NCBI GenBank assembly: GCA_008632985.1
Contig: QPGO01000071.1
Location: forward strand, 173,516-237,515
Direction of reading: 5' to 3'
From: Psammoneis japonica
Lineage: Eukaryota
DNA: 64,000 nt
The notes beneath the pieces are model-generated. The model worked only from the letters and a program-made list of their open reading frames with translations, did no database searches and had not been told where the DNA came from. Both the position numbers and the translations under genes were made by a program. Positions within the stretch are counted from its first letter, which is position 1. The number at the start of each line of letters is the position of its first letter. Positions 1-61,346 of this stretch are shown in pieces.

Positions 1-1447
1 GTTCGCGGCGATTTGCAGAAACACGGGATCGATTTTTTCGAGACCTGCGCGCCGGCAGTGCAATGGTCGTCCATGCGCCTTCTCCTCACCACGGTGCTCA
101 AGGAAGGTTGGACTGCACGTCAAGTGGACCACACTACAGCCTTCTGCCAAGCTGATGTCAAGGAGAAGGTCTGTGTAGAGCCTCCCAAGGGTTTCCAGCC
201 AAAATCGGGCGCCGATCTGGTGCTGAAATTGTTGAAAGGCCCACACGGCCTACGCCAGTCTCCCAAGTGCTTCTGTGAAAAGCTGAGGGACGGATTGCTC
301 GAAAGAGGATGGATTCAATCCGCCATTGACCCTTGTCTTTATTTCAAAAAGGGCATGTCATGTGTGGCACATGTTGATGACACCGTGTTCGCCGGCGCAT
401 CGGCCCAAGCCTTGGAAGCAGAGATTGCCAAGTTGGGCATTTCCAATGATGAGCAACGCCATGTCTTTGATCTACGTGATGAAGGCGAAGTCGGCAACTT
501 TCCAGGTGTCAAGATTCAAAAGCTCGAAGACGGCCGATTCCTCCTGACCCAACCCAAAAGTTCTCCGCACCGCACAGATGACCAAGTGCAACGGCGCACC
601 CACTCCTGCCTTGCCTGCTCCTGCTGGCAGCGATGCCGACGGGCCACTGTTCGACAAGCCTTATGACTGCCGTTCCGTGGTCGGCATGCTGATGTATCTA
701 GCGTCCAACAGCCGCCCGGACATTGCTTGCGCGACCCATCAAGTCGCACGGTTCTCCCACGCACCCAAGGCCTCCCACGCTGTGGCCATCAAGCGCATTC
801 TTCGTTGCCTGAAGGATGCGGCCGACAAAGGACTTATCCTAACTCCAACCGCCGATCAACGACTCGACTGCTATGTTGATGCTGATTTCGCGGGACTCTT
901 CAGTGTTGAAGATGGACAAGATCCCACGTCTGTTGAGTCACGTACGGGATGTGTCATTTGTTGTGCAGGATGTCCGATTGTCTGGGTGCCCAAGTTGCAG
1001 ACCCTCGTCGCACTCTCTGCCATGGAAGCCGAGCATGTCGCCCTCTCCCAAGCGATGCGTGATCTCATCCCCCTTCGCGAGATCGTGAAGGAAATCAACG
1101 CGCTCGTTTTCGGACAGCCGGACAGACAGACCGACATTTCGACACATTCGAAGGCTTTCCGACACGCCAACGACGGAACTGAGGATTCTCCCATTGACTC
1201 CACTAACCTCCCAGCATCCGTTGTGTACGAAGACAATGCTGCCTGCCTCCAATTCGCCCGCATGCCAAAATTGTCCCCACGAACCAAGCACATCGGCATT
1301 CCCTGCCATTGGTTTCGTGCTAAAGTTGAGGCTTTGGAGATCAAAATTGAGCCTGTGAGCTCAGCTGCACAGCTTGCTGACCAGTTTACTAAAGGATTGA
1401 CTGTTGATCTATTCCGTGCTGGTCGCAAAGCCCTCATGGGCTGGTGA
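1..1447 (+). mobile_element. Ty1/copia LTR retrotransposon pol 3' part (reverse transcriptase + RNase H), degenerate, frameshift near 555-580
   Basis: ORFs 13..666 and 578..1447 carry copia RT/RNase H motifs in mutated form: QVDHTTAF, PPKGF, KGPHGLRQSP (~KxLYGLKQ), DPCLY, VAHVDD (YVDD), SRPDI, CYVDADFAG, SRTG, EAEHVALS, YEDN, RTKHI, QLADQFTK. Confidence 0.95.
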
Positions 1448-1474
1448 CTGACAGTTCTCCTTCTCTTTTCGGTT

Positions 1475-1748
1475 GAGAGGGAGAGTCACGAGTCAACAAC
1501 CGAGTCTGATTCACGGATGACGCTTCCGGTCATGGATCTCTTCTTCCGGAAGAAATGTCCGTTGAGTCTTCTAGCGATAGTAATCGGAGTGACACACACG
1601 ACCGTTAGGTCATAATGTCATCTCCAATCCCTCGTGAGATCTTCTCACAATTCGTATCTTTAGCGTATCTTATTGTCCCAAAACTACTTCTTATCATCCT
1701 CTGTTGTATTGTACAACCTCAAGAGAGTCCTGAACTCTCCATCCTACA
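1475..1748 (+). repeat. Polypurine tract (GAGAGGGAGAG, 1475-1485) and probable 3' LTR of the copia element; LTR end uncertain
   Basis: Purine run 28 nt after the pol stop. Candidate LTR ends ...CTCCATCCTACA near 1748. The 5' LTR lies outside the window, so the end cannot be confirmed. Confidence 0.55.
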
Positions 1749-2223
1749 CAGTGTATTGTTGTATCCCAAGTCCTCGTGGACCTTCGCTGGTCGGATCAAA
1801 TTATCATCCACAAGATACTTGCCTGGTACAATAGGCCCTCGACTACTCTGGAGAGATAAGCTACAATAGACTCTAGCTAGTAGCCGTATTCAATGCCGAT
1901 AGACCACCCATGCCTCCTAGCATGGAAAGACTAGGCATTGATGAGCAATCAAACTTCAGATGGAAGAGCTATTTTGAATTTCATTCTGATTCAACGTGCT
2001 TCACCCGCGCTCACAACTTCTTGCACAATCTCTCTGGCCCTACTACTTCTACTCTAGAGCATCTCACGATCTCCATTATTTTCGGCCCATCAGAGCTAGT
2101 GTAGATACCAATTTTTTCGTTGTTATAGAACACAAGTCATCTAAAGTTACTCTTCTGATACGACTACATACAAAACAATGCGTCATGCCCATCTTTCATT
2201 CACCCAAAGCAATCCCTTTCGCT

Positions 2224-3646
2224 TTAGTGCCCATTTACATAGTACTCGTACTCTGGAATTTTGAGTGTTATGTTCCCTGCATACCCGACAACATCATCAA
2301 AGATGTCAAATGTCGTTGTGCCATCCTTGTAGACTGGAGCAAGGTCAACTTGTCCCATTGCACCTTTAAAGACATTTGTTCCACCATCAATTCCGATTGA
2401 TCCACCGATACCATCATAAATCTCACCACTAGCAGAAAAGGCATTTCCATCTGCATCGTTGTAAGTAAAGGAACATCGACCGCCACCTGGGAATTCATCG
2501 GAGCCATCGTTGTACTGCAGCCGGAGGCAGTCACCAGTTACCGACCCAATTTCATCGCCCGTATCGAAGTTGAAAAGAATATCATTATAGATGTACACAA
2601 CGCCGACTTCAGTTGTAAGGTCGCTGCCTGATTTAAGATTGATGCTTGTGGAGTTTGGTTGGAAGACGGGCATGTGGATTTTGGTAATGATGACGCCACC
2701 TGCAACAGCAAAAAGAAAGAGAAGAAACGCAGTGTGAGTAAGATGGCGCGGAAGATTGTTTGGACACACAATTCTTCCAAAACAAGGGCAGAATTAGAGG
2801 AAAGATCCAAAAGCTCACTTACCATAGTCGTCGCCTGTGAAATCAAACAAAAGTAGAGGGAGAAAATAAATGTGAGTAAGCAGGCATTACCAAAACAAAA
2901 TTCTCATTGATTGATTTGAATCGAAAGACTCTTTTCAAATCAGAATTCAAGGAAAGCTCCAAAATCCTTTCGTTTGCAAAAGATCACTCACCATATCCCT
3001 TTCCACCGCCATATCCCTTTCCATCACCATATCCACCACCATAACCCTTGCCTGTGGCATACTCGTAGCCCTTGCCTCCATATCCTTTTCCTGCGGCATA
3101 CTCGTAGCCCTTGCCTGCATATCCTTTGCCTTTGGCATAGCCCTTCCCTTCGTAACCCTTGCCTTTGGCGTAGCCCTTTCCATCGTAACCCTTGCCTTTG
3201 GCATATCCTTTTCCTTTGGCGTAACCCTTGCCATTGCCTCCCTTCTTGCCTCCGCCCTTTTTGCCACCTCCGCCTCCCTTTGCGTAGCCCTTGCCTTCGT
3301 GTTCGTATCCATCATCATAACCATAATCATGATAGTCGTACCCTTTTCCCTTGGCGTACTCGTACCCCTTTCCTTTGGCGTACTCGTATCCTTTTCCTCC
3401 GTAACCTTTGCCTTCATAGCCTTTGGCGTACTCGTATCCTTTTCCGCCGTAACCTTTGCCTTTGGCATACACGTAGCCCTTTCCTCCGTAACCTTTTCCA
3501 GAGTCGTGGTAGTCGATTAGGTTCGGGCTTCGGCTTCGGGTTCCTCAGAAGCTTCTGTTCCAGCAAGCTTTGCATCGTCCAAAGCACACAGGCTGAGATA
3601 CTTGCTAGGATCACAGCGGTCGAGTAAATCTTGATGCAACTTTCAT
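2224..3646 (-). CDS. Secreted Lys/Gly/Tyr-repeat protein with C-terminal dirigent/allene-oxide-cyclase-like domain (paralog 1); exons ~3646-2992, 2834-2823, 2699-2224
   Basis: ATG at 3646, hydrophobic signal-like stretch, acidic pro-segment, then (A/G)KGKGY/GKGYEY repeats (ORF 2984..3472). Two phase-1 GT-AG introns join in frame to ORF 2224..2769 (GDCLRL...CSFTY...GGSIGIDGGTNVFKGAMGQV). A few 1-nt indels are needed in the first ~130 nt. Confidence 0.75.
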
Positions 3647-4386
3647 TTTGCTTCTTGGGGAAAAACAACGACAAGGAAGAAATTGGGTGAGACGCCAATT
3701 GCAACAATTCGTTCTCTCGTGTGCTGCTTTCCAACACGAGAACCACCACCAGCTCCTTCGGATGTTGCTCGATAACTTACTCTCTTTCTTTGAAACACTC
3801 TTGTTGAGATTGTGTCTTTGAGACGACTCTTCTTGCTGGATTATGTTCTTGTTGTCGCGTTGGAAGCCGGATTTTGTGGGCGTTGCGAATGAGCCGGATT
3901 GGTTCGTAGCCGTTGAGATATGCGTTGGGAAATTAGTAATATCCAGAACATTACCTTGACCGGACAAAAATTTTAATGTATATAATTCGATTGTAAGGTT
4001 TAGATTATTCAACGCAATCATCGTATGCTGGTTATTGATCTAATAATGAACGGCGCGGCGCACCCGTCACGACTTCTTGCGACACGGAAGCTTCCAAATC
4101 TGCCGTTGAGAAGAAGATATTGTACTGTATGTGTTTGTCATTGAAATCTACGTGGAAGTATGCCGGGTATTTGTGGAACGCATGAGTGAGGATTGACTAT
4201 CGAATTGGTGTACTTTTGAAATTGGCCGTCTGTCGTCACGGCCGGATGAGTTGACAAAATCTTTTTTCCGTTGAAAGATTTCATCTTGGTGCCATTTCCC
4301 ATTTCCCATTTCCATCCATTGACGATGACACCGGTTCACACGTCACCTCGAATATAGCTACGCAGGTAAGCAGGGCAACCAAAGCA

Positions 4387-5882
4387 ATGACGGCGACGCA
4401 CCGATCAAGTCAGAATGCCGAGCGACCACAAAAAAGCCAATTTCATCACCTGAAGACGATCAATTACAGTGCGTTTCCTTGTATGACGACAGCAAGATCC
4501 TCATTAGCCCGCTTTTCAAAGACACCAATAGACTCCCGGAACGCTTTTCTCATCCACTCCTCACCCGGGCATCCGTGAGATACAACAACCCTCCAAATTC
4601 TGTGCGTTTCAAGCTAGACGGACACCCATGGTCAGATCACTACGGCAAAGCTGGCGTGCATTCAAGAAGAGTGGTAGTGGATCTTGTGTCTGCCATGTGT
4701 GAGACCGAACACGACCTGGTTGCTTGCGCAGATCTCTCACGGTTTCGGCATGGAAACGCAGGAAACTTGTTCTTTCGCCGCAAACAACAAGGATCGCCCG
4801 CGCAAGAAGTAGCATGCATATCCTTATCGGGTGACGACACTCTTCAGGTCGTCTCTGTCCCGCGCATGGAGAAGTCGCTATTTCCAGACGTTTTGAAGAA
4901 CTGGCAATGTGGTTATACCGAGCGAAACGGATGTCCTGAATATCGACTGAGAGGCAAACCGTGGTGTACTAGCACCAGTGACAACCTTTCGACTCACTTT
5001 ATCGTTTTGGAGATTCTCAGACTCATGAGGAATCTTGGCTGGACAACGTGCGTTCCGTTCGATTGTACATCCCGAGATCATGATGCCGACTCGTTATTGT
5101 TTACAAGAGATGCGACTAGTGACACCAGAATTTCAACTGTGGCGAAAGCCTGTCAAATGTGTTGTATTGGCTTGGAACAAGAAAATGTTTTGAGCTTGAT
5201 GGGTGATTTTGATGACCAGACAACAAGCGCATTGGAATCCGCCGTTGCCATCGGTTGGCCCGACGGAATAAAGAGAGTTTTCAAATCCAATAGCACTCAT
5301 CGAATCGAATGCAATGGTGAACCGTGGACTGCCAGAATCACTACAGAGTCGATTGCTGTACGGAGCCTTGTTTGTGTGGTGCTTGAAGAATTGAATCGAG
5401 TTGGTTGGAGATTGTACTGCGCCCCTGATTTGTCAAGGAAAAATTCTGCAACGTCGTCCTTCTTTTACGTCCGAGACAACTTCTCGACCGCAATACCGCC
5501 AAGAGTCTTTGGCTGCGTTTCGTTGAATAACAATCATAAAATCAACTGCATTCGACTGCCGCCGGAAATCTCGAAGGCCTTGGTGCATTTCCTCGAATCA
5601 TCGGACGGCTGCCCTTGGCCACACGGTCTCAAGTCAAACATGCAAGTACGAGATGAACTGTCTGCTGTGAGCGGCAAGTTTTGTCGGGACCCATGGAACA
5701 CATTTACAAAATCAAGAGACAAGGCAAAGGTGTCGTACTTGGTCACTATGATCCTCCACAAAATTCTTTGCACCCACTCGAGCTCACTTGTCTGCGCCGC
5801 AGGCGTTTCGGCCGCAACTATCGGCGAGGACGACGACCCACTTGACGTTGATACATTCTTCTTTTCGTTTGGCACAGTATAG
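4387..5882 (+). CDS. Hypothetical protein with four internal repeats (…K/R-L-x-G-x-PW… followed by an amphipathic helix and GW)
   Basis: 467-aa ORF 4479..5882 with KLDGHPW, RLRGKPW, ECNGEPW, KFCRDPW repeats. The likely ATG at 4387 needs one frameshift. Confidence 0.7.
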
Positions 5883-6879
5883 TGAGAAATAATCAAATCT
5901 GAAATCTCTGAAAACGTACTTCTCAAATATGAAGAATCATGAACCGAGCTTGCTTGACGCCAAAGCACTACAGGTAATGCATTTACTTGCCAACATTAGG
6001 CAAAAAAATTGTTTTCGTGAACTAAAACCTAGTACAACTCATCTTTTATTATGCGATTCAACAAAGATGCTCGATATCTTTCCTTTCATCAACGAGAACT
6101 GATCTAGCAGAAAATGGAAGATAGATCGGGAGCGGCGAACTCAAGAAGTCCAAGTGTAACCCAATGCCCAACTTTTTCTTCGAAATTTCAACGTATTGGC
6201 GAATTTACATTTGCGTGTAAATTTCTTGATCGCGTTTATGAAATACAAAACTATGCTTAGTATACTTTATCCTACTCGACAAAGCATAGTCACTTCCATT
6301 CTTAATCCACGTCCGGATAAGGCAGAACTCTTCTGGTTACTAGAAAGTGCAAGGAACAGGAATGGCTGCTGAAATTGCACCCGTAAAGCCTAGCGAATCT
6401 TCGAAGAGGTCAAAGAATGGATTCGTGCTATTTGGGTAAAATGGCGCGATAGGGATTTCACCAATGGCACCGACCCAGTCACCGGTGCCACCGGTGATTG
6501 CAAGTACCCCGCCATGAACGTCTTCAACCAAGCCTGTAGCAGTGATAGTGCTGCCTGCAGCGTCGCCATACGTAAGCGTGCAATACCCCCCACCTTTTGG
6601 AGCATCTTCTGGTGGATTTGGCATCAAGGTGGCATTATCGGCATCTGGTAGTACCGGTATCAAGGTGGCATTCCTTGTCCTGACACAATGTCCATGCGTA
6701 GTGCCGATCAGCTCGAGCTCGTCAAACTCCTCAAAAATGGTGAGGTTGTAGAGAAAACAGTCCCAAAGGAATGTTGCACCATACATGTCAAGGTCGAGTT
6801 GGTCTCCAAACCTATCCCAGCGGTAATCATAATCTGGCTGGTAGAATCCGAGGTCCAGAAAGTTGTACTTGTTGCAGCT
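5774..6879. repeat. Segmental duplication, copy A (copy B at 19414..20343)
   Basis: Shared CCACTCGAGCTCACTTGTCTGCGC start, shared 3' flank, and near-identical dirigent-domain coding sequence in paralogs 2 and 3. Confidence 0.9.
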
Positions 6880-7227
6880 GCCGGGGCCATGTCCTTCATA
6901 GTATCCTTTGCCGCCTTTGCCGCCTTTGCCACCTTTGCCACCTTTACCTTTGCTCTTCTTTCCACTGTACCCCTTCCCTTTGGCACTCTCATAGCCCTTT
7001 CCTTTGGCATACTCGTACCCCTTGCTTTCGTACCCCTTGCCTTCATACCGCGCATCTTCGTAGTGTCCTAGACGACCAGGAGACAGATCGCGCATCTCGT
7101 CCGCCGTCTCGGTGGTTTCCGCTTCAGGGGCTGCCTTTCTATGAAGAGATCCAATGCCGATGGCTTGAGTGGTCATGGTGGCCAAAGTCATCGCGATGAG
7201 ATGACGAATGGCGATTGAAAACTTCAT
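6340..7227 (-). CDS. Secreted Lys/Gly/Tyr-repeat protein with dirigent/AOC-like domain (paralog 2)
   Basis: MKFSIAIRHLIAMTLATMTTQA signal peptide, RDL site, EGKGY/KGGKGG repeats, then GHCVRT...CTLTY...ITATG...LAITGGTGDWVGAIGEI. Confidence 0.85.
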   Translation of the reverse strand: MKFSIAIRHLIAMTLATMTTQAIGIGSLHRKAAPEAETTETADEMRDLSPGRLGHYEDARYEGKGYESKGYEYAKGKGYESAKGKGYSGKKSKGKGGKGGKGGKGGKGYYEGHGPGSCNKYNFLDLGFYQPDYDYRWDRFGDQLDLDMYGATFLWDCFLYNLTIFEEFDELELIGTTHGHCVRTRNATLIPVLPDADNATLMPNPPEDAPKGGGYCTLTYGDAAGSTITATGLVEDVHGGVLAITGGTGDWVGAIGEIPIAPFYPNSTNPFFDLFEDSLGFTGAISAAIPVPCTF

Positions 7228-10200
7228 TGTGACGGCCTGTGGGACAAGTCTGCATGCACTGTGATGCAAATGATAACTGTGAGTTGAGTGAAGAAGGCAC
7301 GGAAGAGACACTGTCTTTTGCTCGCAATCGACTTACCTTTCGTGAATTGTGAGAGCTGTTGTGGTTGGGAAGCTTTTGCATTTGGAGTGGATTTCTCTTG
7401 CTTGTGACCAAACTTGCTTGGCACGACTTACTGGGCATTTCTGAAATTCCAATTTTGCCATGCGTTGAGTTTGGGATCTACCAGTCGCTACATAGATTCA
7501 AAGCTCAAAGCTTGTCATGTTGAATGTTTCGAGCGCGACCCAATCCAAGACCCAACTCACGCTTTCTTAAAGTAAATTTTGCCTTGACAATGTTGCTTTT
7601 TTATAAATGGCTGTTACAGAAACCAAAGCGTTTCATCGTTATCTGATAAAATCTCATTTCATGCATTGCTTCTGGTGAGTCTCGAGGACAGACATTTTGT
7701 TATTTGACTTAACAAGAACCAAAAATTCAAAATCCAGAAACACGACACATCAACATGATGGGCGCCGCGGCGAGATCGACGTTGAAGGGGCGATCTGGAT
7801 CTGGATCTGGACTCGCAAGCACGCAAGCACCGACGACGATGACAATGGGCAGCTTGTCATGTTGTGACCAGGGCAGCAAGCCATTTTGCTGTGGTTCTTG
7901 GATGAGTTTTGACAGGCTTCAAACTCACACATGACACAGTGTTTCTCATGACTTCCACCTGCCCTTCTTTGCTGTCCCAGGATTGGACACAGAGACGCTG
8001 ATGCAGCAACAAACAGGAGAGAAAAAACAACACCCACTTCTGCAACTGCTGCAGCCACTGAATGCAAACTCTGTTCCATTTTTCTGTCAGCATGCTGTGC
8101 AGATGAGGTGTTGCACCCTTGTTGACACACGGCAAATTCGCACTTTGCGCGAGCTGCTGCAAAAGCACTCCAAATGGGGGGCGTGTTTGGATGTAAGAAT
8201 GTAAAAGAAACTTGCATGGAATTTGCACTAAAACAGTCAGTCAATCTGTGCATTTGGGGTTTTGGTGAATGCTGGATGGGCCAAGTGTGTTTCTCAATGT
8301 GCAAACTGTGCTGGGGGAAGAGCTGGAGGGTGCTGGCATGCCGGGTTCTTTTGGCATTTTCACAGCCAAAGATGCCCCTCAAAGCAGGCAAGTCTGGAAG
8401 ACAAGATGCTGCAATGTCACCCAATGAGAGGAAAAGAACACATCAAAAATGAGCTGGAAGTGCTGGCTGGAGCCTGCGCCATCAAACTGCAGAGCAAAGT
8501 GCCCACTTCAGAGCACACACTCAAAAGGACACCCTGAACTTGCACAAAAGGTTGAAATGTCATGGACAGGAGAAGCTTCACATGAGATCAAGAGCACAGC
8601 TCTAAAAATGGCTCTTGTTCACTTGGCTTCAACCAAAGTTGCAGGAGACATTCGTGCATTTGATGCAGTTGTGAGGACCTCCCCCCAAATGCTGTGTCAT
8701 GTCAAGTGCACAGCACCACAGAGGATCAAAAGCAGTGCCACAGCTGCAATGATTTTCCAGCCTGATCAAGGAGTCTCTGGGACAACCAGGTTTTGGTGAT
8801 TTGTCATGGCACTGAGCAAAAGGCAGTCAAAATGGGCTGTGCAGGAAATGGGCTTCAACAGACTTTCAACAACTTGAGGGTTTTTCTTGCCATTTTTTGT
8901 CTCCATTCAAGGATTTCACCTTTGCTCCCTTGTGTTGGCTTTCCATGTCATTGCCCAGCATCTCAGGTGATCCACCCCCCAAAGTCGCCTCATGTTGTGC
9001 TCCCTCTGCTCTGCAAGAATGTTGTGCAAGACACTCTTTAAATTGACAACAGCACAGCTTGTTGATGTGCACCTGCCCGGATGTTTCAATGAGTGCACCC
9101 ATGGCTTAAAAAAAGTCTTTGTGTCTCCACAACTGCACTGCCTTCTTGGAATCTCTCAGCATCCACCCCACACCCCATGTTGACTTTTGTGATGAGGACG
9201 ATGCCATGACCACACACTGTCAAGCTTGTTTTAACCTGTGCTCATGCAGCAGCAGATGTCACCACAACACTGTCAGGCCCCTGGCATGCCATGTGCCATG
9301 CTTGTGCACTGGACAATGTTGCTGGCACAAAGTCATCAAGATTGTTGCATGCTGCCCATGTGGCAGCTGATGTCACCACCATCAGCCATGTCAGAGTTTT
9401 GCATGCCCTGGCTGAACATCATGCAACGTCATGACTCTCAATGTGTTGTTGTTTGTTCTGCACACCATTGCACCCCACATCAAGCTGTTGTGGCTGCTGC
9501 TGCTCCTTGTCAAGAACTCAACAGAATCCTGCACAATGTCCATTGGCTGCTTGGCAGGCTTTCACAATGCCTCTCCCCACAGCCCCAGCAATCTGTCTGT
9601 CATTGCAAGATGGTTGATGATGCCAAGTCAGTTCTTTCTACAAAATTGGGTGACTCCACCTTTGAACATGATAATGACAATTGCTCCCATTTGTTTTGTT
9701 CTGAAGTGTTGCCATTGTCTGCCATTGGCAGCCCTGTTGACCACCCCAACAGCATGAACTTGCTCCAGAACATGCACCCATTGTCAGCTCCAAAGCATTG
9801 CCATGAGCCATTGTTGACAGCCCCCACAGCATGACACCAACTTCAGAACACACACTCCTGGTTTCCTGGAAGATGACAATTGCCCTGCTTTGGCTCAGAT
9901 TGTTTTGGACTTGTGCACTGCCCAAACCATCTTGTTTCCACCAACAATGACTGATGACTGGGACTCTCATCATTGCAATGAGGCTGAGAAGGCCTTGTCT
10001 CAAACAGTTTTTTCTGTCATTCCATGTGGCAAATCTCCCTCCCACTGAACTCTCAATCAGCAAATCATTGCAAATTTTTCATGAGAGTGCTGCTTGACAG
10101 AAATTGATGCTCAGCTGAGAAACATGGAGCACCATGCCGATTGCCATGAAAAAGCAGAATCGTGGTTGTGCAAAAAGAAAAAGGCACCAAACAACCACCT

Positions 10201-13200
10201 GTTGTTCACAGAGATGGTTGTTGATTGTCACCTGTTGTCTGATGCATCATTTGAGGAGAGACACACTGATGCTTTTTTCAAGCATCACCTGGCAACATTG
10301 GCTCATGGTGACATGCTTGACCACAGCTCCACAACAAATTTTTCCTTCTTCAAACTCAGCTTTTGAAGTGGTGGTTGGCCAACAACAACAAATGTGACTC
10401 TCTCAGGGAACACCAAAACTGGGAAACCATGCTGAATGATGTCATTGCTGAATGTGTTAGCCACAAGGCAAAGCTCTCCATCATCTGACATGATGGAACA
10501 CCTCTCTCCATTGGGAAATTTGTCTGAGGTCAGGTTGGCTGAGTTGCAGAGGAAACCACCTTCCATGAATGCAACAAAACACACAAAATGTGTTGTTCTT
10601 GTTCAAAGCACAGCAAGCCACTCAAGCTGGGAGGATTTGGTGTTGCACTCACTGACCTGCCCCTCATGGTGTGTGGGTTTGAAAGCATGATGGAGATGGA
10701 CTTGAAGCTGATGGATCAAGGCCAGCAGAGTTTGTTCCTGGAAAATGGCAACTCCTCCCTCCTTGGTGGATCAGTTTTTGATCCTGACACATGCAGCAGC
10801 AGCAGCAGCAGCACTTCTGAAGCTGACTGGGCCTCTGCTGCCTCTGCCAACACTGGCTCATCATCTGGAGCCCATGGGAGCTTTTAGACAGTTTCTGAAG
10901 ATGAGGACTCCATCTCCTCTTGCAAGTCTTCTGAGTGGCCAGTTGGCATCAGTGAAGGCAGCAAGTCAGATGACAAACTTGAGGGTGAACTTGTGAAAGA
11001 GCCAAAGAGGAGAGCCTGGCTTGTTGCAGGTGTGCACTTTGGGGGTGCACAAGTCTGAGTTGACCAGTGATTGCATCCAGCTGCTTTTGACAAAAACATT
11101 TGGTGACAGCGGCAAACCCAACATGATCAACATGAAAGTTGGCATGGATGGATGCTGTGCTGGGATGGATCAACACACCATCAAGGCAGCACTGGAGAAT
11201 GGAGGTGATGCAACAATGACATGCCAGCGGGTGCACAACTTTGCTTTTCCCTTTGGGCAGAAGCTCAGAGGATTCAATGACAAAAGAAAGGCAATGTCCA
11301 CAGAGGGCCTCCACTGCTTGGTGAAGAAAGCAGTGAAGACGCAGCAACTGCAGGCAGAGGCATTTTTTAAAGAAACTGTTGCTCAGCTTTGCTCCTGTTG
11401 AAATGGCCAAGGTGGTGGCATGCTGCTGCAATCAAAGCTGTGCCAAGAAAACTCAAGACATTGGATCCACTGCCTTCCAAGATGGGGTGCAAAATGTTGT
11501 GATCAACACATCCTTTGCACATCCCTTGGACAGTGAAGCCAAGAAGAACATGGCAGTGGGTCAAGCCATGGACAAGAAGCTTGCTGAGGACACAATGAAA
11601 CATGCAAATGACCCCAATGCTGTTGCTGTCTTGCCCATTTGCTCCATGTTTGAAGTGGGGCTGATGAGAAATGTGGAAGTGCCGTGGTTTCAAGACAGCT
11701 CGGACAACAATGGCATGACAGTCATGGATGGAAATCTGGGTGTCTGGAGAGTTTCTGTCTCACAAGCTGAAGACAAGAACCAGTGGAGGCACACAGCCAG
11801 AGGAATGGGAAGTTCTTCAGCAGGTGCAGGAGGGTGGGTAGAAATGTGTCTTGGTGGACACCATGGGTGACAATCTCTGTGGACATGTCACCACCAAGGC
11901 AAGCAATGCTCTCCAAAATTTGCATCATGTCACATGCCAGAACTTCCAATGCATCCTTTGCATCAATGGATCTGAACAGGGCAAGGTCATGTGGGGTGCC
12001 TGGGTGCAATTCTCTGAAGAGCTGCAAGGCACACATTCTGCAAGAAAAGAAACAGATTGAGCAAGTGATCAATTGTGGTGCATGCAACAGCCACACATGC
12101 ACAGACTGTGAAACATTTTCAAATGCCCCCTGCCTGCTGAAAAGAACTCCAAAAATCTGTGCTGTCTCTCTTGTTGAAGCTGTCTCAAAAACAGATCTGA
12201 TGCACTTGCCCAGTGCCCGCCTCATGAGTGATTTCAGGTTCAAAATTCCTGTTGGCTGTGAAAGCCCCTGAGCTGCTGCAGTCCAGCACCTTCTTGCACA
12301 CCTTGTCCAACTGCAAGCACCGCACATCCACACGATGTTCCCAGCTCACCAAATTGAAGATTGCAGAGCCATCAACAACTTCCAAAACAGTGCTGACCAG
12401 CAGATCTGCTCTCTCAAGTCATTGCCTGCATCTCCAATGGGAACATTTTGTGCCAACAAGAAAGCTTTGACAGATGACCAAAGCAAGAAACACTGCAGCT
12501 CTGGCTGGTGGTGGCACCAGCCAGCACCAAAGCCAATCATGGTGAGGAAAGGGAAGCATTCAGAAGACAAAGGCATCAATGCTGTTCTTTCTGATTGTGG
12601 GGTTCTTGTTGGCAAGGAGGAGGCCTCAGTGGAGGTGGGTCATGCACTCAAACATGGCACAGTTGCAAACGCTGCACCCAAAGAATGCTTGGAAAGGAGG
12701 GTGGCTTGTTGCAGTGATGTCAACAACTGCCTGTCAATGTGCAACAATCCCTTCCTCACTGTGAGAATGAATGTCCATCCAAATCTTTATGGAGAATTGG
12801 AAAAAGCACAACAACAGTGTGTCACAGGGGGAGAAAAACACTCAACTGTTGCATGGGATGTCACAGCATGCACTTTTGCAATGACTCACCAAAAGCCAAG
12901 ATGGTTAGACCAGGACTGCTGTGGACTCCATTGCATGCCCTTTGAAGCTGCAACAAATGTGCAAGGCCAAGCTGCACACAGATTGTTGGGGTAAAACTCA
13001 GGTGTCAATGCAGGAAGAAAAGGGGCTCTGAGAACAAGAACAAGTTTTGACAGTGTGAAAGGTGAAAGCAATGCATGTGTGAATGTGCTGGACACATGCT
13101 TTGTGCAAGCCCACAAAGCACACCTTCATGAAGGTGACAGCTGGAGACAGTCACAATCAGTTGGTGCATCCACAGATCCACACTGCACAACAAAAGTCTG

Positions 13201-15450
13201 CACTGCCCGCTTGCACAATGCCCACGCACTTGTTGTGCCATGTGAACCTTGCAACACTCTTTCATTGAACATCACTTTTCACAGAGTCAATTGTCAAATC
13301 CATTTTCTGTGAAAGAATCTTCCAATTTTCTAGACTGAAACAGCATGCCAGCATTCTTGATGAGTTGCTGGAACCATCAACCAGCTTGTTCACTTGTCAC
13401 TTGCCCCCTGTTTCATGCAGCATGAAATGGACATCTCAACAACATTGGAGTGCAACATGATGAACACCTTCCTTGGACCATGTTCCATGCCACCTGCAAA
13501 TGATGTCAAGTTGCACCATGCAGAATTTGACAGAATGGCAAGAGCTTTGCAGCACGTGCAATGTCAAAACGGCAACAACACAGGTGGCCAGTCTTCATCT
13601 CATTGCAGAAGTCACACAGCACTTGCCATTGTGGAACCAACACACACGCATGACATGAGCTTGTAGAGATCACCTTGTGACTGACTCATCTCATGTGAGG
13701 ACTCTGATGACATGCAGCAAACAATGCAAATGAAGAGTGCAGCTTGTGGCAAAACAAAAAATTGTGAGTTTTTCCTTGCTGCACATTTCTGTGCACAAGC
13801 AGGGACAAAACAAAGACACAGATGCAGCAGCAAGAATACAAAAAATGCACTCAGCTGTCATGTGGCCTGGATTGCAAGAAAAATTGTCAACTGTGAACAA
13901 AGTTGAAAACAAAACACATGTGCTGCCAACAATTCAAACCAATCCACAAGATTGTCTGTTGTGATGATGGCCGTGCCAGATGTGTGACAAAAATGAGTGC
14001 AAATTTTGATGCTCTTGTTCACAACATTCTTCACATCAACAGCCAGAGTCAATCATTGCACCAAACCATCGCACCCATGACATTGTTCATCACAAATGTC
14101 AACAATTTGTGGCTGCTGTTGAGATTTCTTTTTGTCAAAATGACAGGGAGAACTTGCAGACATGGGAGGTTGTCCCACACACACCTGGCATCATCTGCTG
14201 CTTGCTTTGTCACTCTGCTTCTTTGGTGCCACATGGGTTGTCAGTGTGCTTCCATCCAAAATCAAATCATTTGCATCCACGGTGTTTTTGACTCCATTCC
14301 TGTTGGTGGTGAAGCACTTGAGACTTTTGATCAAGCTGCAACAAAAGTGTTTGTGAAAGCCTTCTGCAGCTGTTGCAACTTTTGGCTGCACATGACAAGA
14401 GTGGAGATGTGCTTTGGCAAAACAAGAGAGAAGTTGTTGGTGGATTTGTTGCCCTTGTTTCTCAAGATGGGTGGCTCAATTTTCCAGAACAAACCCATCA
14501 ATGTGACCTTTTGTGGTTTGCTGAGGCTGTGAACAAGCCTTCTTAAATGCAAGCAAGCACTGTCATCTTTGTTGGTGATGCGGTGCCTCAACATCTCAGC
14601 TCCATGCATGTTCTCAACCAAAAAACAAGGAAGGCACTCATTGAGATGGCAGCTGTGGGCTGGAAACAGATGTCTGGAGCAACTCCAAGAACAGCTGTGT
14701 CTGACAAGCCTGTGGACGCACTTCAATCCAACCAATCAACTTGGGAAAAGGCAAAATCATCTGATGAAAGCAGGTCATTCACAGAATGGGGGATCAATTT
14801 CTTCATGGATTTGCCACTGCTTTTGTGCTCCACTGCTCATTTTTTTCTCAGGCATGCCTTTTTTTGCAATCAATGGCAACCTGAGATGCAAACATTCATT
14901 GACAGAAAGCCTTGGGTGTGCACCGCAAATGGTCCAAGGCTGACAATGGTCATTTTGGGCACAACTCAAAGTTGCAGCAGCCCAGTCAAAGTGAGAGCAG
15001 TGAGTTGAAACCACGGAAGCTGGATGTTTGCAAGGAAAGCAACAGTGCAGCTGCCTGGGACAGTTGCCAGCAAATTCATTTTGTCAGCTGATCTTTGCTC
15101 ACAGCCACAAAGGATGTTTCCTTGTGACAATTTGTGTGTGTTGTTTGGTTGCAACAGAGCTGCAGCCTGCCTGGGGAAGTCAGGGTGGAAGCAGGAAAGT
15201 CATGTGCACTCCTCAATGACACATGATGGTTCAACAGTGAGCCAATCTTGAGTTTTCCAAGTCAGGGAAAAATCTGACTTTGCATTTGTGATGTCGTGCA
15301 GGAGGGAACATTTCAATTTGACAGGATCATTGTGATGTCACCAAAAGAACCTGAGAAAATCTGATCTGACAGCAGCACACCTGTGTGTGCAAGCATTGCA
15401 TCATGAACATCTTCTGCAACAATTTGACAGCAGCTGCCATTGTGGCATCA

Positions 15451-15689
15451 GCAAGAAACAGGAGGAAATCTGGCGGCATGTGGTGTGTGCAAGCATTGTG
15501 GCACATGGTCCCAAGAGCCCCAATGTGTGCTCAGGAAAATCATCTGACTTGCATTGGGGATGTCATCCTGCAAGAAACATGAGGAAATCCAACAGCACAC
15601 AGTGTGTGCAAGTGCTGCATTGCATGATCCTGAGAACCCCAATGTGTGCACAGGAATGTTGTCTGACTTTGCATTGGTGATGTCATCCC
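15451..15689 (+). repeat. Degenerate tandem repeat, ~119-bp unit x2 (partial related copies from ~15268)
   Basis: GCAAGAAACA.GAGGAAATC...GTGTGTGCAAG...CCCCAATGTGTGC.CAGGAA...TCTGACTT(T)GCATTGG.GATGTCATCC at 15451 and 15570. Confidence 0.8.
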
Positions 15690-17524
15690 AGGACTTGCGG
15701 GCTGCCTCCAGGTTGTGCCCCACAACAAATTTCCAAAGCCATGCAGAGTTGTCATCTCAATTGTTCAAAATTGTGCTCATCAAAATGCCATGTTTCTGAA
15801 TGAGATCACATTTCAAAAATGATGGCAACAACTCAGTGCATCAATGAATTAAGAATGTGCAGGAGGCCAATCATCACAGTTGTGAAATCAGGGGAAAAAC
15901 AGGGTTGGATTGAGCTGCGTGCCACACAAATGGACTTTGACAGCCAGCAGATCAGCGGCATTGGTGCAACTCCCACAAGGAGAAACAAGATGAGACTTTC
16001 AATGGCAGCAGATGCTCTCCAAGATGCCATGAGCACCAATGGTTGAAATGCCACTGTTGGCTGCAACCAGACAGAATCTCTGGATAACAAGTGACAAAAC
16101 AAAGACCACAGCTGCATGTCATTGTTTGACCATGACAACATCCAAAGTGCTGCTGCATCAGATGCTTGCACAACTCATCTTGTGAAGAAGCACACTGGAG
16201 CCACCAACTCCACCAAGGATGTGAGCAACATTTTCAGGGCTGCTGTCAAGAAGAAACACTGTGATTTTGTAAAGAACATGAAGAAGGGTGCCATTGACAG
16301 CAAGGAATCAATGCTGTTGGCAATCTGTTGCTTTGGCATGAGAAACAACAAGAGCAAATTCAGGGTCACTGACATCACCAAGTGTGTTGGCAAGAGGCCA
16401 GTCTGGGAGGGTTGGAGTGCTGCACTCTGCGTTGCCCATGGCAGCTGGGACACTCACTCCAATTCATTGTTGAGTGTTGAGGAAGCCCCATGGAAGAAAT
16501 GAGAGTGCAAGCACTCCAATGGATTTTGTTGCACCACACAGGAAGAAGTGTGGTTGTGGAACAAGGGTCATCACATCAGAGAAAACACACACAAAATCAG
16601 GGAGCTGAACAATTCTCTGAAGATGTGCTGCAATGTTGCTGCCTGCACATCAAGAACAGTGCAGAATGGAGAGGAGTGACCTCAAGAGAAGGACATCAGC
16701 TGTGCACCATTTCCAGGAAATGGTGCCAAGGGCAGACAAGTGTGTTTCAGAAGTGCAGAGAAAGCACAAGGCAAACTGCCCCATTCTCTCAAGCAGCCAC
16801 TCACCATTGCAAAAATGGTGGCATCAACTTTGGAAGGTTTGAGACAGTCATTTTCAGCACAGATGCCACAAGAATGAAATGGATGATGATGCCTTTGACT
16901 TTAGCAACAACAAGGGGACAGTGAACAAAGGCAGGCATGGGGAGTGGTGCACAAAACAGACAGCAAACAAGAGCTGTCCACAGCCATCTTTTCTCATTCT
17001 AAACAAAGGGGCTTGTCAGACCAAATGAGAACAAGCCACCAAGGAACAAAGTGCATTCATCAGGCAGCTGTGGTGAGCTTGAAGGTTCCTCCAGCATCAA
17101 TGACAGCACCTGTCCATCCAGCATCAGGCAAAGCAAGAAACCAAATCTGACAAAAAGGAAGGAGAGTGGCGCCAGTGACAAGACAAGCAGAAAAAAGGGC
17201 ACCCAACTAGAGCATGGGTGCAAACCCAGGTGCACTCATGTCTGCTGCCACCAACATGAATCAAGCAGCCACACATCTGCCAACAATGAACCAGGCCCAA
17301 ACCTCTCTGCCACTGATGAACAAGAGGAGCTGCCAGAGGATTGGCAAATCATCAAGAAACTGATCAGATGCAAGAAATGTTAAAACAGGTGTCTTGTTTT
17401 TTGGACACACAAGAGAAAACATGGAAACCTGAAGTTGGCCCAATGAGCAGTTGGTGGAGGAGCATCAGAAAAAGGCAGAAGGAGAAGAGGCAGAGAGCAT
17501 TGCCAACCAATGAAGGAAAAGTGT

Positions 17525-17645
17525 GTGTGCTGCATGTGCAGGGAACTCTTGCACAACAGAGTGCCTTGCATCAAATGTGGAGTCAAAAACCACAGGAGCT
17601 GCTCCTTTCAGCAGGCCAGTGGCAAGCACTGGTGCTTTGGTTGTT
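17525..17645 (+). pseudogene. PHD-finger-like relic within the mutated block
   Basis: ORF 17510..17761: CCMC-x9-CIKC-x4-HRSC-x9-WCFGC, the C4HC3 spacing with the conserved Trp. Confidence 0.5.
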
Positions 17646-19413
17646 GCAGATGTGAGGATGAGCAAAGCAGAAAAAGCAATGTGGAGTGCAAGGAGCAAAA
17701 TCACACCAAGCAGTCAGCACTTTTTAAGCTGTGTGACATGCCATGGGAGCTTTTCAATTGAAGGTGCAAAAATGGAAAATCAAGTGGACATGAATGACCA
17801 CAGAGCAGGACATTTGTGCGATGCAAAAAACCAAAAGATGCTGCAGAGCAGCATGCTGCATTTCTTGTGGTGACAATGTGTTGCAGGCAGAGGGGTGTTC
17901 CTAAAAGGAATGAAAAATGGAGCCCTGCTGAGATCATTTGAGTGGCAGCCATTTGTTTGTTTGTGGATGCAACAGCAGGATGTGTGGCATCACAGGTGGT
18001 GCTGTCAGCTGAAGAGAGAGAGAGCAGAGTCATGACAGTGGAACAAAGCTGATGGTGCAGAGTTTGAGTGCAGCAGAACAATGGTGTTGTCGGATGCAGC
18101 AGAGCAAAATGGTGAGGCATGGATGCAGTCATTGCATGATGGCTCCACATGTCAAATTGCACAATGTAGATTGGACAATGGCACAAGGAAACAGCACAAA
18201 TGCCAACTCCAAATTGCAGATGTGATGTGTGCATGATGTGGACAAATGCGCAGTCAAATTTCTTCTGACAGTGTGCCAATGATGTCACTCAATCACATCA
18301 AAGGAATTTGACTTTAGCAAGATGATGTCAGATGACAATGTCAAGCAGTCAGCCAAGACAAAAGTCTGATGTTGTTTGGTGATGTCACAGAGAAAACCAA
18401 GTCAGGTGTCTTGCCTTGACACAGGAACACCTGACATGAGACAAGATTGACAGGGGGCCCTCAAACTGGTGAGACACAACCCTTCTGGCAGTGGATGTGG
18501 TGGTGGAGGGATGCAAAACAACACAACCAGAGATGGACAGTGAAGAGGGTCCCTCATGACAGGCTCCATCCTGGGGAAACACATTCTCTGTTTGCAACAT
18601 CAATGGCAACAAGATGGGGGTGTCACTGTCAATCATTGTGCAGGAGTTTGCTGGGTGCACTGAAGGCAAACAACAACTGGTGGTGACCCATTCTGGTGGA
18701 CAAGGCCTGCCATTCATGATGCTTGGACTTGAGTGTTGAGATGCAGAGGAGGGCAAAAACTGCTTGGTTGTGCACAAAAAGTGCAAACCAGACATCAAGG
18801 GGTTTGAGCAAAATCTGCACCACACCTTGCTGGTGCTGCCCATGCAGAAAGTCACTGCCAAACTAGCTTTGGACCCAGGGTTTTAAGCTGGCATCAAGTG
18901 TGGCATTTTGGACCCCAACAACAATTCATGAAACCTGCAACAACTGAGTTTCTGGGAAGTGAGCAAGAGATTGGGTGCAATGATTAGAAGAGCTTCTCTT
19001 GCAGGTGCAAGAAACAATGAGCAAAGGAAAAAGGTTGTTGTTGCAGGAAGGCTAACTTGGTTTGCAACATCAAATCTCGGCAAGCCTCCATGCAAGGAAA
19101 TGCCTGTCCCAATGGAGATTACCAAGAAGACCTGGCTTGAACAACACTCCTGTGCATCTGAGGAGGGTTAAGGCCGGTGGTGTTGTTGGAGAGGGGGATC
19201 TCGAAGAACACCACGAAAGCATAGTTTTCAAAATCATGTGTGTGGGATATAATGAAGAGAAGCACCTAAGATATATACTCAGCATGCTGTGGATCAAGAT
19301 AGACTGTCTGCTGTGAGTGACAAGTTTTTCGGGACCCGTAGAACACGTTTGCAAAATCCAGTGACAAGGCAAACGTGTCATAGTTGGTAACTACGGTAAA
19401 AAATGCTATGAAA

Positions 19414-20343
19414 CCACTCGAGCTCACTTGTCTGCGCAGCAGGCATTTCGGTTAACGTGGATACATTCTTCTTTTCGTTTGACACAGTGTAGCGGGAAAC
19501 AATCAAATCTGAAATCACTGGAAAGGTAATTCTCACATCTGAAGAACCACGAACCGAGTTTGCTTGATGCCAAAGCACTACAGGTACACTACTTGTGCAT
19601 TTACTTGCATCGGGAGTTTCAAAAACAAGAAGCTCAAAGTAACCCAATGCCCAAATTTCTCGTCAAAGGCTTACGGTATTTGCGAATATCCTCTGCGAAT
19701 TCTACATCTGCGCGTGTTAAATATTCTGATCACGATTCTGAAATACAAAGCTATGCTTACTACACTACTTTATGCCACTCAACAACGCATATTCACTTCC
19801 AATCTAAATCCCCGTCCGGTTAAGGCAAAACTGTTCTGCTTAAAAAGTGCAAGGAACAGGAACGGCCGCTGCAATTGCGCCCGTAAAGCCTAGCGAATCT
19901 TCGAAGAGGTCAAAGAATGGATTCGTGCTATTTGGGTAAAATGGCGCGATAGGGATTTCACCAATGGCACCGACCCAGTCACCGGTGCCACCGGTGATTG
20001 CAAGTACCCCGCCATGAAAGTCTTCAACCAAGCCTGTAGCAGTGATAGTGCTACCTGCATCATTGCCAAACGTAAACGTGCAATATCCACCACCTTTTGG
20101 AGCATCTTCTGGTGGATTTGGTATCAAGGTGGCATTCCTCGTTCTGACACACGATCCATGCGTAGTGCCGATCAGCTCCAGCTCGTCAAACTCCTCAAAA
20201 ACGGTGAGGTTGTAGAGAAAACAGTCCCAAAGGAATGTCGCGCCATACGAGTCAAGCTCGAGTTGGTCTCCAAACCTATCCCAGCGGTAATCATAATCTG
20301 GAATGTAGAATCCAAGGTCCAGAAAGTTGTACTTGTTGCAGCT
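19414..20343. repeat. Segmental duplication, copy B (includes an orphan 3' fragment of the 4387..5882 gene)
   Basis: Aligns by eye to 5774..6879. Confidence 0.9.
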
Positions 20344-21021
20344 CCCATACTTTCCTCCATATTTTCCCTTTCCTGGACCAGGACTTGGACCAGGGCCGGG
20401 ACTAGGACCAGGACCATATCCTTCGTATTCTTCGTAGTATCCTTTGCCTTTTCCATATCCTCCCTTTCCAGGACCTGGACTTGGACCAGGGCCATATCCT
20501 TCGTATCCGTATTCTTCGTAGTATCCTTTGCCTCCGATGTATCCCTTGCCTTTATTATATCCTTTGCCTTCGATGTATCCCTTGCCTTCATAATAACCGC
20601 CTTCGGAAGAACTTCTCTTGCCACCCTTGCCTCCACCTCGTTTGCCACCTCTGCCTTTTCCTTCTCCACCTTCTCCTCCTCCCTTGCCACCTCTGCCTTT
20701 TCCTTCTCCGCCTTCTCCTCCTTTTCCTCCGTATCCCTTGCCTCCATAACCCTTTCCTTCGTAACCTTTGCCTTCATATCCTTTTCCTTCATATCCCTTG
20801 CCTTCGTACCCTTTCGCTGGTCCAGGAGACACTCTAGGTCCGGGGCTGCGTCTAGGTCCAGCGCTGTAGCGCTTCGGAAGACGACGGTTCTCTGCATCGG
20901 CGCCCACGAGAATTTCCTCAGTGGGAACAGTAGCTTGGAGAGAGTCTTGTTCGGCGGCAAACGAAGTCGCGATGGCCAAGGCCATTGCGCTGACGCACAT
21001 AATCCTGGTAATGATCTTCAT
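19840..21021 (-). CDS. Secreted Lys/Gly/Tyr(/Pro)-repeat protein with dirigent/AOC-like domain (paralog 3)
   Basis: 393-aa ORF: signal peptide, ENRRL site, (EGKGY)n, GG-rich and GPGPSP repeats. C-terminal domain nearly identical to paralog 2. Confidence 0.9.
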   Translation of the reverse strand: MKIITRIMCVSAMALAIATSFAAEQDSLQATVPTEEILVGADAENRRLPKRYSAGPRRSPGPRVSPGPAKGYEGKGYEGKGYEGKGYEGKGYGGKGYGGKGGEGGEGKGRGGKGGGEGGEGKGRGGKRGGGKGGKRSSSEGGYYEGKGYIEGKGYNKGKGYIGGKGYYEEYGYEGYGPGPSPGPGKGGYGKGKGYYEEYEGYGPGPSPGPGPSPGPGKGKYGGKYGSCNKYNFLDLGFYIPDYDYRWDRFGDQLELDSYGATFLWDCFLYNLTVFEEFDELELIGTTHGSCVRTRNATLIPNPPEDAPKGGGYCTFTFGNDAGSTITATGLVEDFHGGVLAITGGTGDWVGAIGEIPIAPFYPNSTNPFFDLFEDSLGFTGAIAAAVPVPCTF

Positions 21022-61240: not shown

Positions 61241-61346
61241 CAGCATGCTCAAATGCAAAGGCTGTCAACACCTTGCAGGCCACGGGCATGTGCCTTCTTG
61301 TTCTGTGAAAGCCATGAAGAGTTTTTTGTGCCCTCTTTTTTGGCAA

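Follow-up and report, generated by a model that had tools for sequence, protein, structure and literature searches.

Probable TpA-directed hypermutation of a copia element and two further tracts in a genomic window of Psammoneis japonica

Described hypermutation systems and the locus

To our knowledge, every described mutational genome defense acts on cytosine, as in repeat-induced point mutation (RIP), editing by APOBEC enzymes, and CpG decay, and ADAR acts on RNA. Here, we describe a stretch of 64,000 nucleotides from Psammoneis japonica (contig QPGO01000071.1, positions 173,516 to 237,515 of the forward strand; below, the window) in which a copia retroelement fragment at the left end (positions 1 to 1571) and two further tracts, tract A (7711 to 19050) and tract B (58553 to 63448), are depleted of the dinucleotide TpA. 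A first-pass annotation made from the letters alone had drawn attention to the copia element; the process proves to be wider than one element, as the two tracts in the same window are far more strongly affected. We consider it very probable that the pattern reflects real TpA-directed hypermutation of discrete DNA pieces, with TpA turned into TpG or CpA. A full-text literature search, with subscription journals mostly outside its coverage, returned no description of such hypermutation in diatoms or other eukaryotes, and we found no described mutation or genome defense pathway that accounts for the footprint.

In form, the footprint resembles RIP, which also consists of dinucleotide-specific transition hypermutation in discrete segments with sharp borders. 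The direction differs, however: RIP changes C:G to T:A mainly at CpA and creates TpA, whereas here TpA falls to observed-to-expected ratios (o/e) of 0.04 to 0.24 and CA and TG rise. RIP, which depends on a RID/DNMT4-type enzyme in the sexual phase, also needs duplicated DNA, whereas tract A is single copy without a partner in the window and a multicopy state holds for copia only. The direct repeats flanking the tracts are, unlike in RIP, the unmutated parts. One report states that diatoms have DNMT4 enzymes related to fungal RID, with no known function (PMC9998398), and the accessible portion of another diatom paper contains no mention of hypermutation, mutational transitions, or dinucleotide bias (PMC2806351).

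The decay of 5-methylcytosine at CpG has in common with this footprint the symmetric, site-by-site loss of a self-complementary pyrimidine-purine (YpR) step to TG or CA, and the CG layer of tracts A and B is probably its work, but it cannot remove TpA. Loss of CG is found in tract A (CG o/e, 0.07) and in the right half of tract B (0.18) but not in the copia fragment (0.90) or in the left half of tract B (0.63). Loss of TA reaches further than that of CG and is found in copia where CG is kept, which rules out or at least disfavors CpG decay as the only cause. The first-pass annotation had stated that neither RIP nor CpG decay explains the copia fragment, and this stands, given the opposite direction of the former and the nearly full complement of CG.

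Hyper-editing of viral or retroelement RNA by ADARs, which are metazoan enzymes and leave footprints in retroelement copies, produces A-to-G changes with a preference for a 5′ U, as would fit here. ADARs also edit AA, favor a 3′ G, and edit one strand in strand-coherent clusters, whereas here the choice between the two products is random per site. An ADAR-like process is disfavored because AA is untouched, a 3′ pyrimidine is preferred, and strand clusters are absent. APOBEC3 enzymes resemble the present case as a mutational defense against retroelements that leaves the long terminal repeat (LTR) behind the polypurine tract least edited and produces gradients along the element. They deaminate cytosine on the minus strand only (G to A on the plus strand), whereas here adenine is affected on both strands equally; the near equality of TG and CA disfavors one-strand editing of cDNA of the APOBEC type. 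The natural target of TadA/ADAT enzymes is the A after U in the U-A-C context of the anticodon loop, and evolved TadA deaminates A in DNA. The T-A-Y preference described below (Y, pyrimidine; R, purine) overlaps this motif, and we know of no natural TadA/ADAT that hypermutates genomic DNA.

Loss of TpA in the copia fragment

The fragment represents the 3′ half of a copia pol gene. A dinucleotide count over positions 1 to 1447 gives 18 TA against 73.9 expected (o/e, 0.24), together with 97 CG (o/e, 0.90) and raised o/e values for TG (1.44) and CA (1.21). By comparison, the o/e in unremarkable parts of the window is 0.53 to 0.59 for TA and 0.94 to 1.00 for CG. The earlier estimate by eye of fewer than about 20 TA in 1,447 nucleotides (nt), with CpG abundant, was therefore accurate.

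For comparison with relatives, we searched 5.8 billion proteins and obtained 36 matches, 31 of them at 51 to 63% identity, which were aligned to both halves of the fragment. With conserved columns defined by at least 80% agreement among the relatives, 270 of the 467 columns covered by at least 20 relatives were conserved. Opposite conserved residues, the fragment has ETC for ETY, VDHT for VDYT, KVC for EVY, GPHGL for SLYGL, VAHVDD for VVYVDD, YDC for WEY, DIACA for DIAYA, LRCLK for LRYLK, RTGC for RTGY, EAEHVAL for EAEYIAL, PCHWF for PYHWF, FPGV for FLGI, and SAME for STME. All the tyrosine-to-histidine or -cysteine, leucine-to-proline, and threonine-to-alanine motifs named in the first-pass annotation are thus present and stand opposite residues conserved in the 31 relatives. 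Only 1 of 11 conserved tyrosines is retained (6 are cysteine and 4 histidine), whereas other conserved residues are retained in 215 of 259 columns (P = 4.6 × 10⁻⁷ by Fisher's test). These replacements fix the direction of change as TA to TG or CA.

Altogether, 54 of the 270 conserved columns hold a deviating residue in the fragment, and a single base change suffices to explain 37 of the deviations. In a manual tally, the 37 changes comprise 13 TA to TG, 7 TA to CA, 2 other A to G, 2 other T to C, 1 CG to CA, and 12 transversions. Hence, 20 of the 24 A:T-to-G:C changes lie in TpA, where about 15% would be expected (binomial P = 1.9 × 10⁻¹³), which confirms both the direction and the TpA specificity that had been claimed for this element. 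The two kinds of TA change are interleaved along the fragment, forming 9 runs against about 10 expected by hand count, with no strand clustering.

For copia alone, these differences might be ordinary lineage substitutions in a relaxed, nonautonomous family, superimposed on the genome's general shortage of TA. Such an origin would be compatible with the low identity of the relatives (51 to 63%) and with the 34 of 54 conserved-column differences that are not of the TA type. It is also compatible with the composition of high-GC relatives, which are themselves TA poor in pol: in the homologous 888 nt, the fragment has 13 TA, against 16 to 36 (mean, 28.9) in the eight relatives with a GC content of at least 0.44, so that the raw TA count alone is weak evidence. 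(This comparison took 34 of 80 fetched metagenome loci, those among L001 to L041 with a match spanning residues 4 to 299.) We nevertheless consider lineage substitution very improbable. Ten of the 11 conserved tyrosines are replaced, solely by histidine or cysteine; TpA accounts for 20 of the 24 A:T-to-G:C changes; two nearly TA-free tracts lie within the same 64 kb; and RTAY sites are lost while YTAR sites are kept, as in those saturated tracts. Within the homologous 888 nt, 3 RTAY sites remain, against a mean of 12.2 in the relatives, and 5 YTAR sites, against 5.4. It is which TAs are gone, rather than how many, that is telling and sets the fragment apart.

Among the metagenome relatives, no hypermutated copy was seen in the 80 loci kept of 419 confirmed (TA o/e, 0.41 to 0.92; longest TA-free gap, 363 nt), a set in which mutated copies were selected against because one of the two search patterns required tyrosine. 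Two loci from two metagenome assemblies, L065 and L066, carry nearly identical copia pol sequences (1 residue different in 257) with all tyrosines intact. Downstream of pol, both have a TA-poor, CG-rich stretch with a TA o/e of 0.14 to 0.17 in 500 nt.

The reverse transcriptase part of pol lies on the plus strand at positions 1 to 546, its left end being beyond the window, as is the 5′ part of the element, where gag, protease, integrase, and the partner LTR would be expected. It is open in frame 1 from base 1 to about 546, and its assignment follows from the open reading frame (ORF) list, the alignment with the 31 relatives, and a Pfam match to RVT_2 (PF07727; E = 8.1 × 10⁻²², residues 2 to 174). 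The RNase H and C-terminal part follows on the same strand in frame 2 (548 to 1447), without an internal stop before the terminal one at 1445 to 1447. This region, which ends in ...LMGW, aligns with 30 relatives and is matched by 404 library proteins at an E value of 10⁻³⁰ or lower.

Contigs from public reads (one study, three runs of one sample) were aligned to positions 1 to 20000 at a likeness of at least 80%, the threshold behind all copy numbers given below. The switch of frame at about 547 (plus strand, 547 to 560) results from an 11-nt deletion: other copies have 11 nt behind 555/556 that are absent here, seen as insertions of 10 and 1 nt at 555/556 in a contig of depth 834. With HVDD in place of the YVDD motif of an active copy, 10 of 11 conserved tyrosines gone, and the frame broken by this deletion, the copy is functionally dead. 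In other respects it has decayed little. Its two reading frames (182 + 299 = 481 codons) contain no stop and only one indel, and TA loss is much faster than other decay; this is a rough bound only, since a change of TA to TG or CA cannot create a stop codon and stop-free frames therefore bound the age only roughly.

Depletion is not bound to the ORF. The TA-depleted zone (1 to 1571; 18 TA, CG kept) extends 124 nt beyond the pol stop and closes with a TA-free gap at 1410 to 1572. Purine runs at 1475 to 1485 and 1547 to 1554 precede a final part of the repeated element with normal TA (1572 to 1771; 16 TA in 200 nt), whose position after these runs suggests that it may be the 3′ LTR. The repeat ends at about 1771, as indicated by loose contig ends at 1677 and 1771 and by a single-copy contig starting at 1772. 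Summed k-mer depth over the copia element is 2000 to 4000 in the public contigs, which we read as tens of copies. This depth prevents a base-by-base check of the fragment in the reads, but other copies can be compared with it. Among the 40 of 369 differences listed, position 1201 is CA here and TA in another copy, 1388 is TA here and TG in others, 583 to 584 is CA here and TG in another, and 1375 is TG here and CG in others. YpR states that differ in both directions hint that the copies were struck independently.

Two tracts nearly free of TpA

The tracts were located by a 1-kb scan of the window together with the positions of every TA and CG. Tract A, 11.3 kb long (7711 to 19050), is single copy and has a TA o/e of 0.04 and a CG o/e of 0.07, with TG and CA at 1.99 and 1.85. 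Only 34 TA and 46 CG are left in 11.2 kb, and about 97% of both are gone. The GC content is unchanged (0.472 versus 0.479 in the background), and TG and CA together, at 238 per kb, equal the sum of TG, CA, TA, and CG in the background (about 239 per kb). Across all borders, the number of YpR steps stays constant, at 110 to 141 per 500 nt for tract A and 57 to 70 per 250 nt for tract B. This constancy indicates that TA and CG were converted, neither deleted nor avoided.

Internal repeats carry the same message. A tandem repeat of 2 × 120 nt in tract A (plus strand, 15451 to 15690) has a nucleotide identity of 76 to 77% but a purine/pyrimidine identity of 95%, with nine positions at which one unit has TG and the other CA (TG/CA doublets). 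A pair in tract B (plus strand, 61315 to 61766) is similar, with 80 to 82% nucleotide identity, 95% purine/pyrimidine identity, and six doublets. In the part of tract B that retains CG, a further plus-strand pair (60645 to 61011) has seven doublets and one TA/TG pair, and its CGs are common to both copies. Over five pairs inside the tracts, there are 25 doublets in 736 aligned nt and a transition:transversion count of 126:46, with purine/pyrimidine identities of 86 to 98% at nucleotide identities of 60 to 94%; four pairs in the flanks have no doublet in 1,242 nt and a count of 76:67. A TG/CA doublet is expected where a single ancestral TA (or CG) was resolved separately in each copy, so that the mutation must have come after the internal duplications. 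In the pair at 60645 and 60840, where CG is retained in both copies, the doublets are direct evidence of TA-to-TG/CA change in tract B. A purine/pyrimidine-coded BLAST search for unmutated partners of tracts A and B and copia within the window gave only internal tandem repeats; its E values are invalid for a two-letter alphabet, and short matches were ignored. A search for former reading frames by purine/pyrimidine codon periodicity did not recover even copia's own frame.

The first-pass annotation had raised the possibility of an artifact, and a footprint of this completeness could conceivably arise from base calling on heavily modified DNA if modified A were called as G and 5-methylcytosine as T. 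The library type of the sole study is off record, and run X1 is perhaps from the assembly's own sample. Contigs from this run cover tract A at 8318 to 10436, 10460 to 11564, 12170 to 13695, 13695 to 14876, and 15532 to 19909, at a k-mer depth of 54 to 65, compared with 54 to 61 in single-copy flanks, and with 2 to 19 other letters per piece (about 0.5%). Tract A is thus present in the reads at single-copy depth and is not a product of assembly or polishing. Misreading would have to be about 97% complete and to yield TG or CA reproducibly at each site, in contigs that are clean, up to 315 kb long, and at a depth of about 55; moreover, the copia changes are carried by one copy of a multicopy family. 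Given the clean contigs at this depth, misreading of modified bases by the platform is unlikely, and we regard a sequencing or base-calling artifact as a whole as extremely improbable. Other letters in the contigs over all 20 kb (A to G, 53; G to A, 57; C to T, 64; T to C, 68; transversions, 118) are silent on direction. In the X1 contigs, differences of about 0.5% occur even in single-copy DNA, such as 10 letters in 1,631 nt at 1772 to 3401, and reflect either heterozygosity or an isolate other than the assembly's.

To characterize the sequence context, we compared surviving TAs in tracts A and B (minus a short island at 8128 to 8232, described below) with the expectation from 42.4 kb of background. 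The surviving fractions are 0.010 for RTAY, 0.058 for RTAR, 0.043 for YTAY, and 0.347 for YTAR, and of the 51 surviving sites, 32 are YTAR, a class that has 245 of the 1,673 sites in the background (P = 2 × 10⁻¹⁴). A two-strand model in which an A survives with a probability of 0.10 in 5′-TAY-3′ and 0.59 in 5′-TAR-3′ gives a product of 0.059, which matches the mixed classes; in units of hits, 5′-TAY-3′ is struck about 4.4 times as often as 5′-TAR-3′. The products in tract A are split by their flanks as the independent two-strand model predicts: the excess is 22.2 CA versus 11.3 TG per kb between purines (R_R), 13.6 TG versus 5.2 CA per kb between pyrimidines (Y_Y), and 14.2 versus 14.1 per kb in R_Y flanks. 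Overall, TG and CA are nearly equal (in tract A, 1,300 versus 1,363; in the left part of tract B, 255 versus 266), and the choice between them is unclustered in tract A (χ² = 90.7 over 111 bins of 100 nt). The two strands are therefore struck independently, site by site, with a preference for an A before a pyrimidine. The first-pass annotation had proposed an A-to-G change at TpA on either strand, which is borne out, with the target now narrowed to 5′-TAY-3′ and the strands acting independently.

Dinucleotides other than YpR steps are at background values in the tracts. This bears on one of the three candidates of the first-pass annotation, patch repair by a Y-family polymerase (WA to WG, as made by Pol eta), considered here with deamination of CpG cytosines as its trigger. 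Such repair would couple A:T mutation to C deamination, and both layers do occur together in tracts A and B. Pol eta mutates AA as well as TA, however, and AA o/e in the tracts (1.16 to 1.19) equals that of the background (1.14 to 1.20), AG being likewise at background; TA loss without CG loss, in copia and the left half of tract B, is also at odds with it. The candidate fits poorly and is, in our judgment, scarcely credible.

Tract B, 4.9 kb long (58553 to 63448), has lost nearly all TA throughout (20 left), but its CG is kept on the left (o/e, 0.63 at 58560 to 61100) and lost on the right (0.18 at 61100 to 63440). CG loss rises from left to right as a gradient, and the TA survivors follow the same trend less strongly. 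In every case, CG loss is confined to the domain of TA loss: copia has lost TA in part and no CG, tract B has lost TA throughout and CG on the right, and tract A has lost both. As the CG-loss domain is narrower and has its own borders, the two layers are separable. We take the CG loss in tracts A and B to be the ordinary deamination of 5-methylcytosine, or else a CpG process akin to RIP, in DNA that is silenced. The surviving CGs (19 RCGY, 9 YCGR, 12 YCGY, and 14 RCGR, against 516, 587, 625, and 636 in the background) are biased like the TA survivors in form, only more weakly. In the final kilobase of tract B (62300 to 63300), CA outnumbers TG, 136 to 79.

Both edges of tract B coincide with direct repeats. 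The left repeat (plus strand, 58310 to 58543) ends 10 nt before the tract begins, and the right one (plus strand, 63457 to 63805) starts 9 nt after it ends; both have normal TA and CG, are 79 to 90% alike, and have diverged by 10 to 20% without TA loss. Such borders would be expected if the RNA, minus-strand cDNA, or episome of an element were deaminated at UA/TA and CG before integration, in the manner of APOBEC3. The mutated zone of tract B is the interior between terminal direct repeats, to within 10 nt on both sides, and the copia zone ends about 120 nt past the pol stop, after purine runs, where the 3′ LTR is expected; the host flanks are untouched. Exposure of single-stranded minus-strand cDNA gives gradients such as that of CG loss, and to a lesser extent of TA survivors, in tract B, as is known for APOBEC3G and HIV. 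Editing of one strand, however, predicts a strong asymmetry of TG and CA, whereas the two are nearly equal (13 versus 7 in copia), and tract A offers 11.3 kb without any retroelement feature. The differing YpR states of copia copies fit mutation in situ equally well. On balance, editing before integration seems to us a decidedly unlikely explanation.

Within tract A, the first 130 nt are still CG dense (12 CG in 7743 to 7837), and the right border is gradual, at about 18860 to 19250. The start is gene-like, with an ATG at 7756, 45 nt in, behind an A-rich leader. No Pfam family was found in the long ORFs of the tract or in a six-frame read-through with X at stops, and a homologue search with the best ORF chain (11771 to 12991) found none. 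Translations of the tract are rich in cysteine, histidine, glutamine, and tryptophan. In tract B, 40 of the 87 ORFs with at least 45 amino acids were compared with Pfam, and no family reached its threshold; the matches were at chance level, the best being DUF498 at 20.4 bits against a cutoff of 33 and the others weaker. The island in tract A (8128 to 8232; 105 nt) keeps five CG and three TA and is multicopy, with 12 contigs, a summed depth of 763 at 8239, and a bin depth of 116 versus 55 to 65; a short repeat probably inserted here at a later time.

Tract A is flanked by a direct duplication whose plus-strand copies, at 5651 to 6882 and 19297 to 20346, are 76 to 83% alike and of normal composition. 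The left copy overlaps the minus-strand ORF at 6340 to 7332 and the right copy the minus-strand ORF at 19840 to 21036, and the DNA of both is host-like. These two ORFs are diverged tandem paralogues on either side of the tract; together with the ORF at 2920 to 3627, they have in common a short internally repeated motif (for example, 3042 to 3163 versus 3363 to 3499 and 6967 to 7047 versus 20730 to 20813) and match no Pfam family.

The rest of the window is gene-dense eukaryotic DNA, with separase, glycosyltransferase, CLC channel pieces, kinase, DAO oxidoreductase, SpoU methylase, and citrate-transporter-like genes. The homologues of the DAO gene that carry an organism name, 5 of the 120 matches listed, are all from diatoms, at 46 to 49% identity; the best match listed is at 53%. 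The CLC chloride-channel gene lies in three minus-strand ORFs (44617 to 45705, 45709 to 46149, and 46145 to 47374) and the citrate-transporter-like gene is split over 54342 to 57501, in both cases probably by introns or frame changes. A scaffold gap of 235 N at about 49416 to 49650 lies in a low-GC kilobase beside the protein-kinase ORF at 48156 to 49169 (minus strand). Rfam and tRNA scans of the window gave no matches, and a Pfam search of 43 host ORFs in the window gave no match to a deaminase, DNA methyltransferase, or TET/JBP domain. In the gene-dense background at 20400 to 58300, TA o/e is 0.53 to 0.59, TG and CA o/e are 1.14 to 1.21, and CG is near 1.0. It is possible that TA-to-TG/CA pressure of this kind acts weakly throughout the genome.

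Candidate mechanisms and implications

A deaminase with a T-A-Y preference that turns adenine into hypoxanthine in DNA would produce the observed TpA layer, and adenine deamination is our tentative proposal for its chemistry. Such an enzyme would serve as a mutational defense of the genome and would have mobile or foreign DNA as its target. The copia zone (1 to 1571) is a lightly struck example of the footprint, and tracts A and B are nearly saturated; CpG loss to TpG or CpA is a second layer, which copia lacks, tract B has in part, and tract A has in full. We lean toward a pathway dedicated to acting on mobile or foreign DNA. The statement as a whole, which joins TpA hypermutation, adenine deamination, and an aim at mobile or foreign DNA, is in our view evenly balanced between true and false. 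A stronger form, in which both-strand deamination of 5′-TAY-3′ adenines and loss of CpG cytosines together constitute a natural eraser of palindromic YpR steps that would turn every TA and CG of invading or mobile DNA into TG or CA, is rather doubtful.

The nearest rival to an adenine deaminase is the decay of a symmetric TpA modification in silenced DNA. N6-methyladenine, or 5-hydroxymethyluracil (5hmU) or 5-formyluracil made by an enzyme of the TET/JBP type, would mispair or deaminate on each strand separately. Decay of this kind would give a symmetric, site-by-site, and unclustered outcome, and the survival figures fit two strands decaying independently; TA and CpG loss also co-occur in domains, of which the TA-loss domain is always the wider. 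We know of no TpA modification of that kind in diatoms. N6-methyladenine in eukaryotes is known at ApT, but AT is not depleted in the tracts (o/e, 0.87 to 0.93, versus 0.91 to 0.98 in the background). In addition, copia has lost many TAs without CpG loss and with almost no other decay, which looks faster than a passive process. In one paper, 5hmU on both strands of TpA is discussed as a source of instability (PMC11804724). Among the papers listed by a literature search on N6-methyladenine, 5hmU, and TET/JBP enzymes in diatoms, none was relevant. Taking both sides, we judge the decay of such a modification unlikely.

Several further points, besides the TA-poor copia relatives and the sparse read record described above, weigh against a deaminase aimed at mobile DNA. 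The data come from one window and one sample. The earlier claim that the changes are targeted to transposable element DNA applies to copia, but tracts A and B contain no recognizable transposable element genes. Tract A in particular is single copy, lacks any transposable element or viral domain, and has a gene-like start, so that for this tract such an aim is conjectural. The island in tract A is unaffected, and if it is a later insertion, the process is not visibly continuing there. Finally, the borders match terminal direct repeats in tract B and, in copia, lie near the likely junction of polypurine tract and LTR, which fits editing before integration better than a process acting in situ across chromatin. 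The main contradiction is that in tract B, and apparently also in copia, the process has struck the interior and left the terminal repeats untouched, which neither a deaminase nor the decay of a modification explains.

Removal of TpA by A:T-to-G:C change would differ from described defenses in both chemistry and footprint and would represent a new entry among eukaryotic defenses against mobile DNA. An enzyme, if one is at work, would give laboratory adenine base editors a counterpart in nature, and an adenine-directed DNA enzyme behind the footprint would be categorically new. If the YpR-erasing form were true, it would be, for eukaryotes, the first natural adenine-directed hypermutation of DNA and, chemically, the mirror image of RIP, destroying tyrosine codons, TATA-like signals, and TA-containing target sites while never creating stop codons. 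Long open frames persist in hypermutated elements, as stops cannot arise from the process, and in annotation such elements may be mistaken for genes. Other protist genomes can easily be scanned for the footprint by a TA o/e below 0.1, YpR steps at constant density, and the survival of YTAR. Silenced or foreign DNA could be dated and mapped in this way, and "dark" tracts free of ORFs, like the 11-kb tract A, could be explained.

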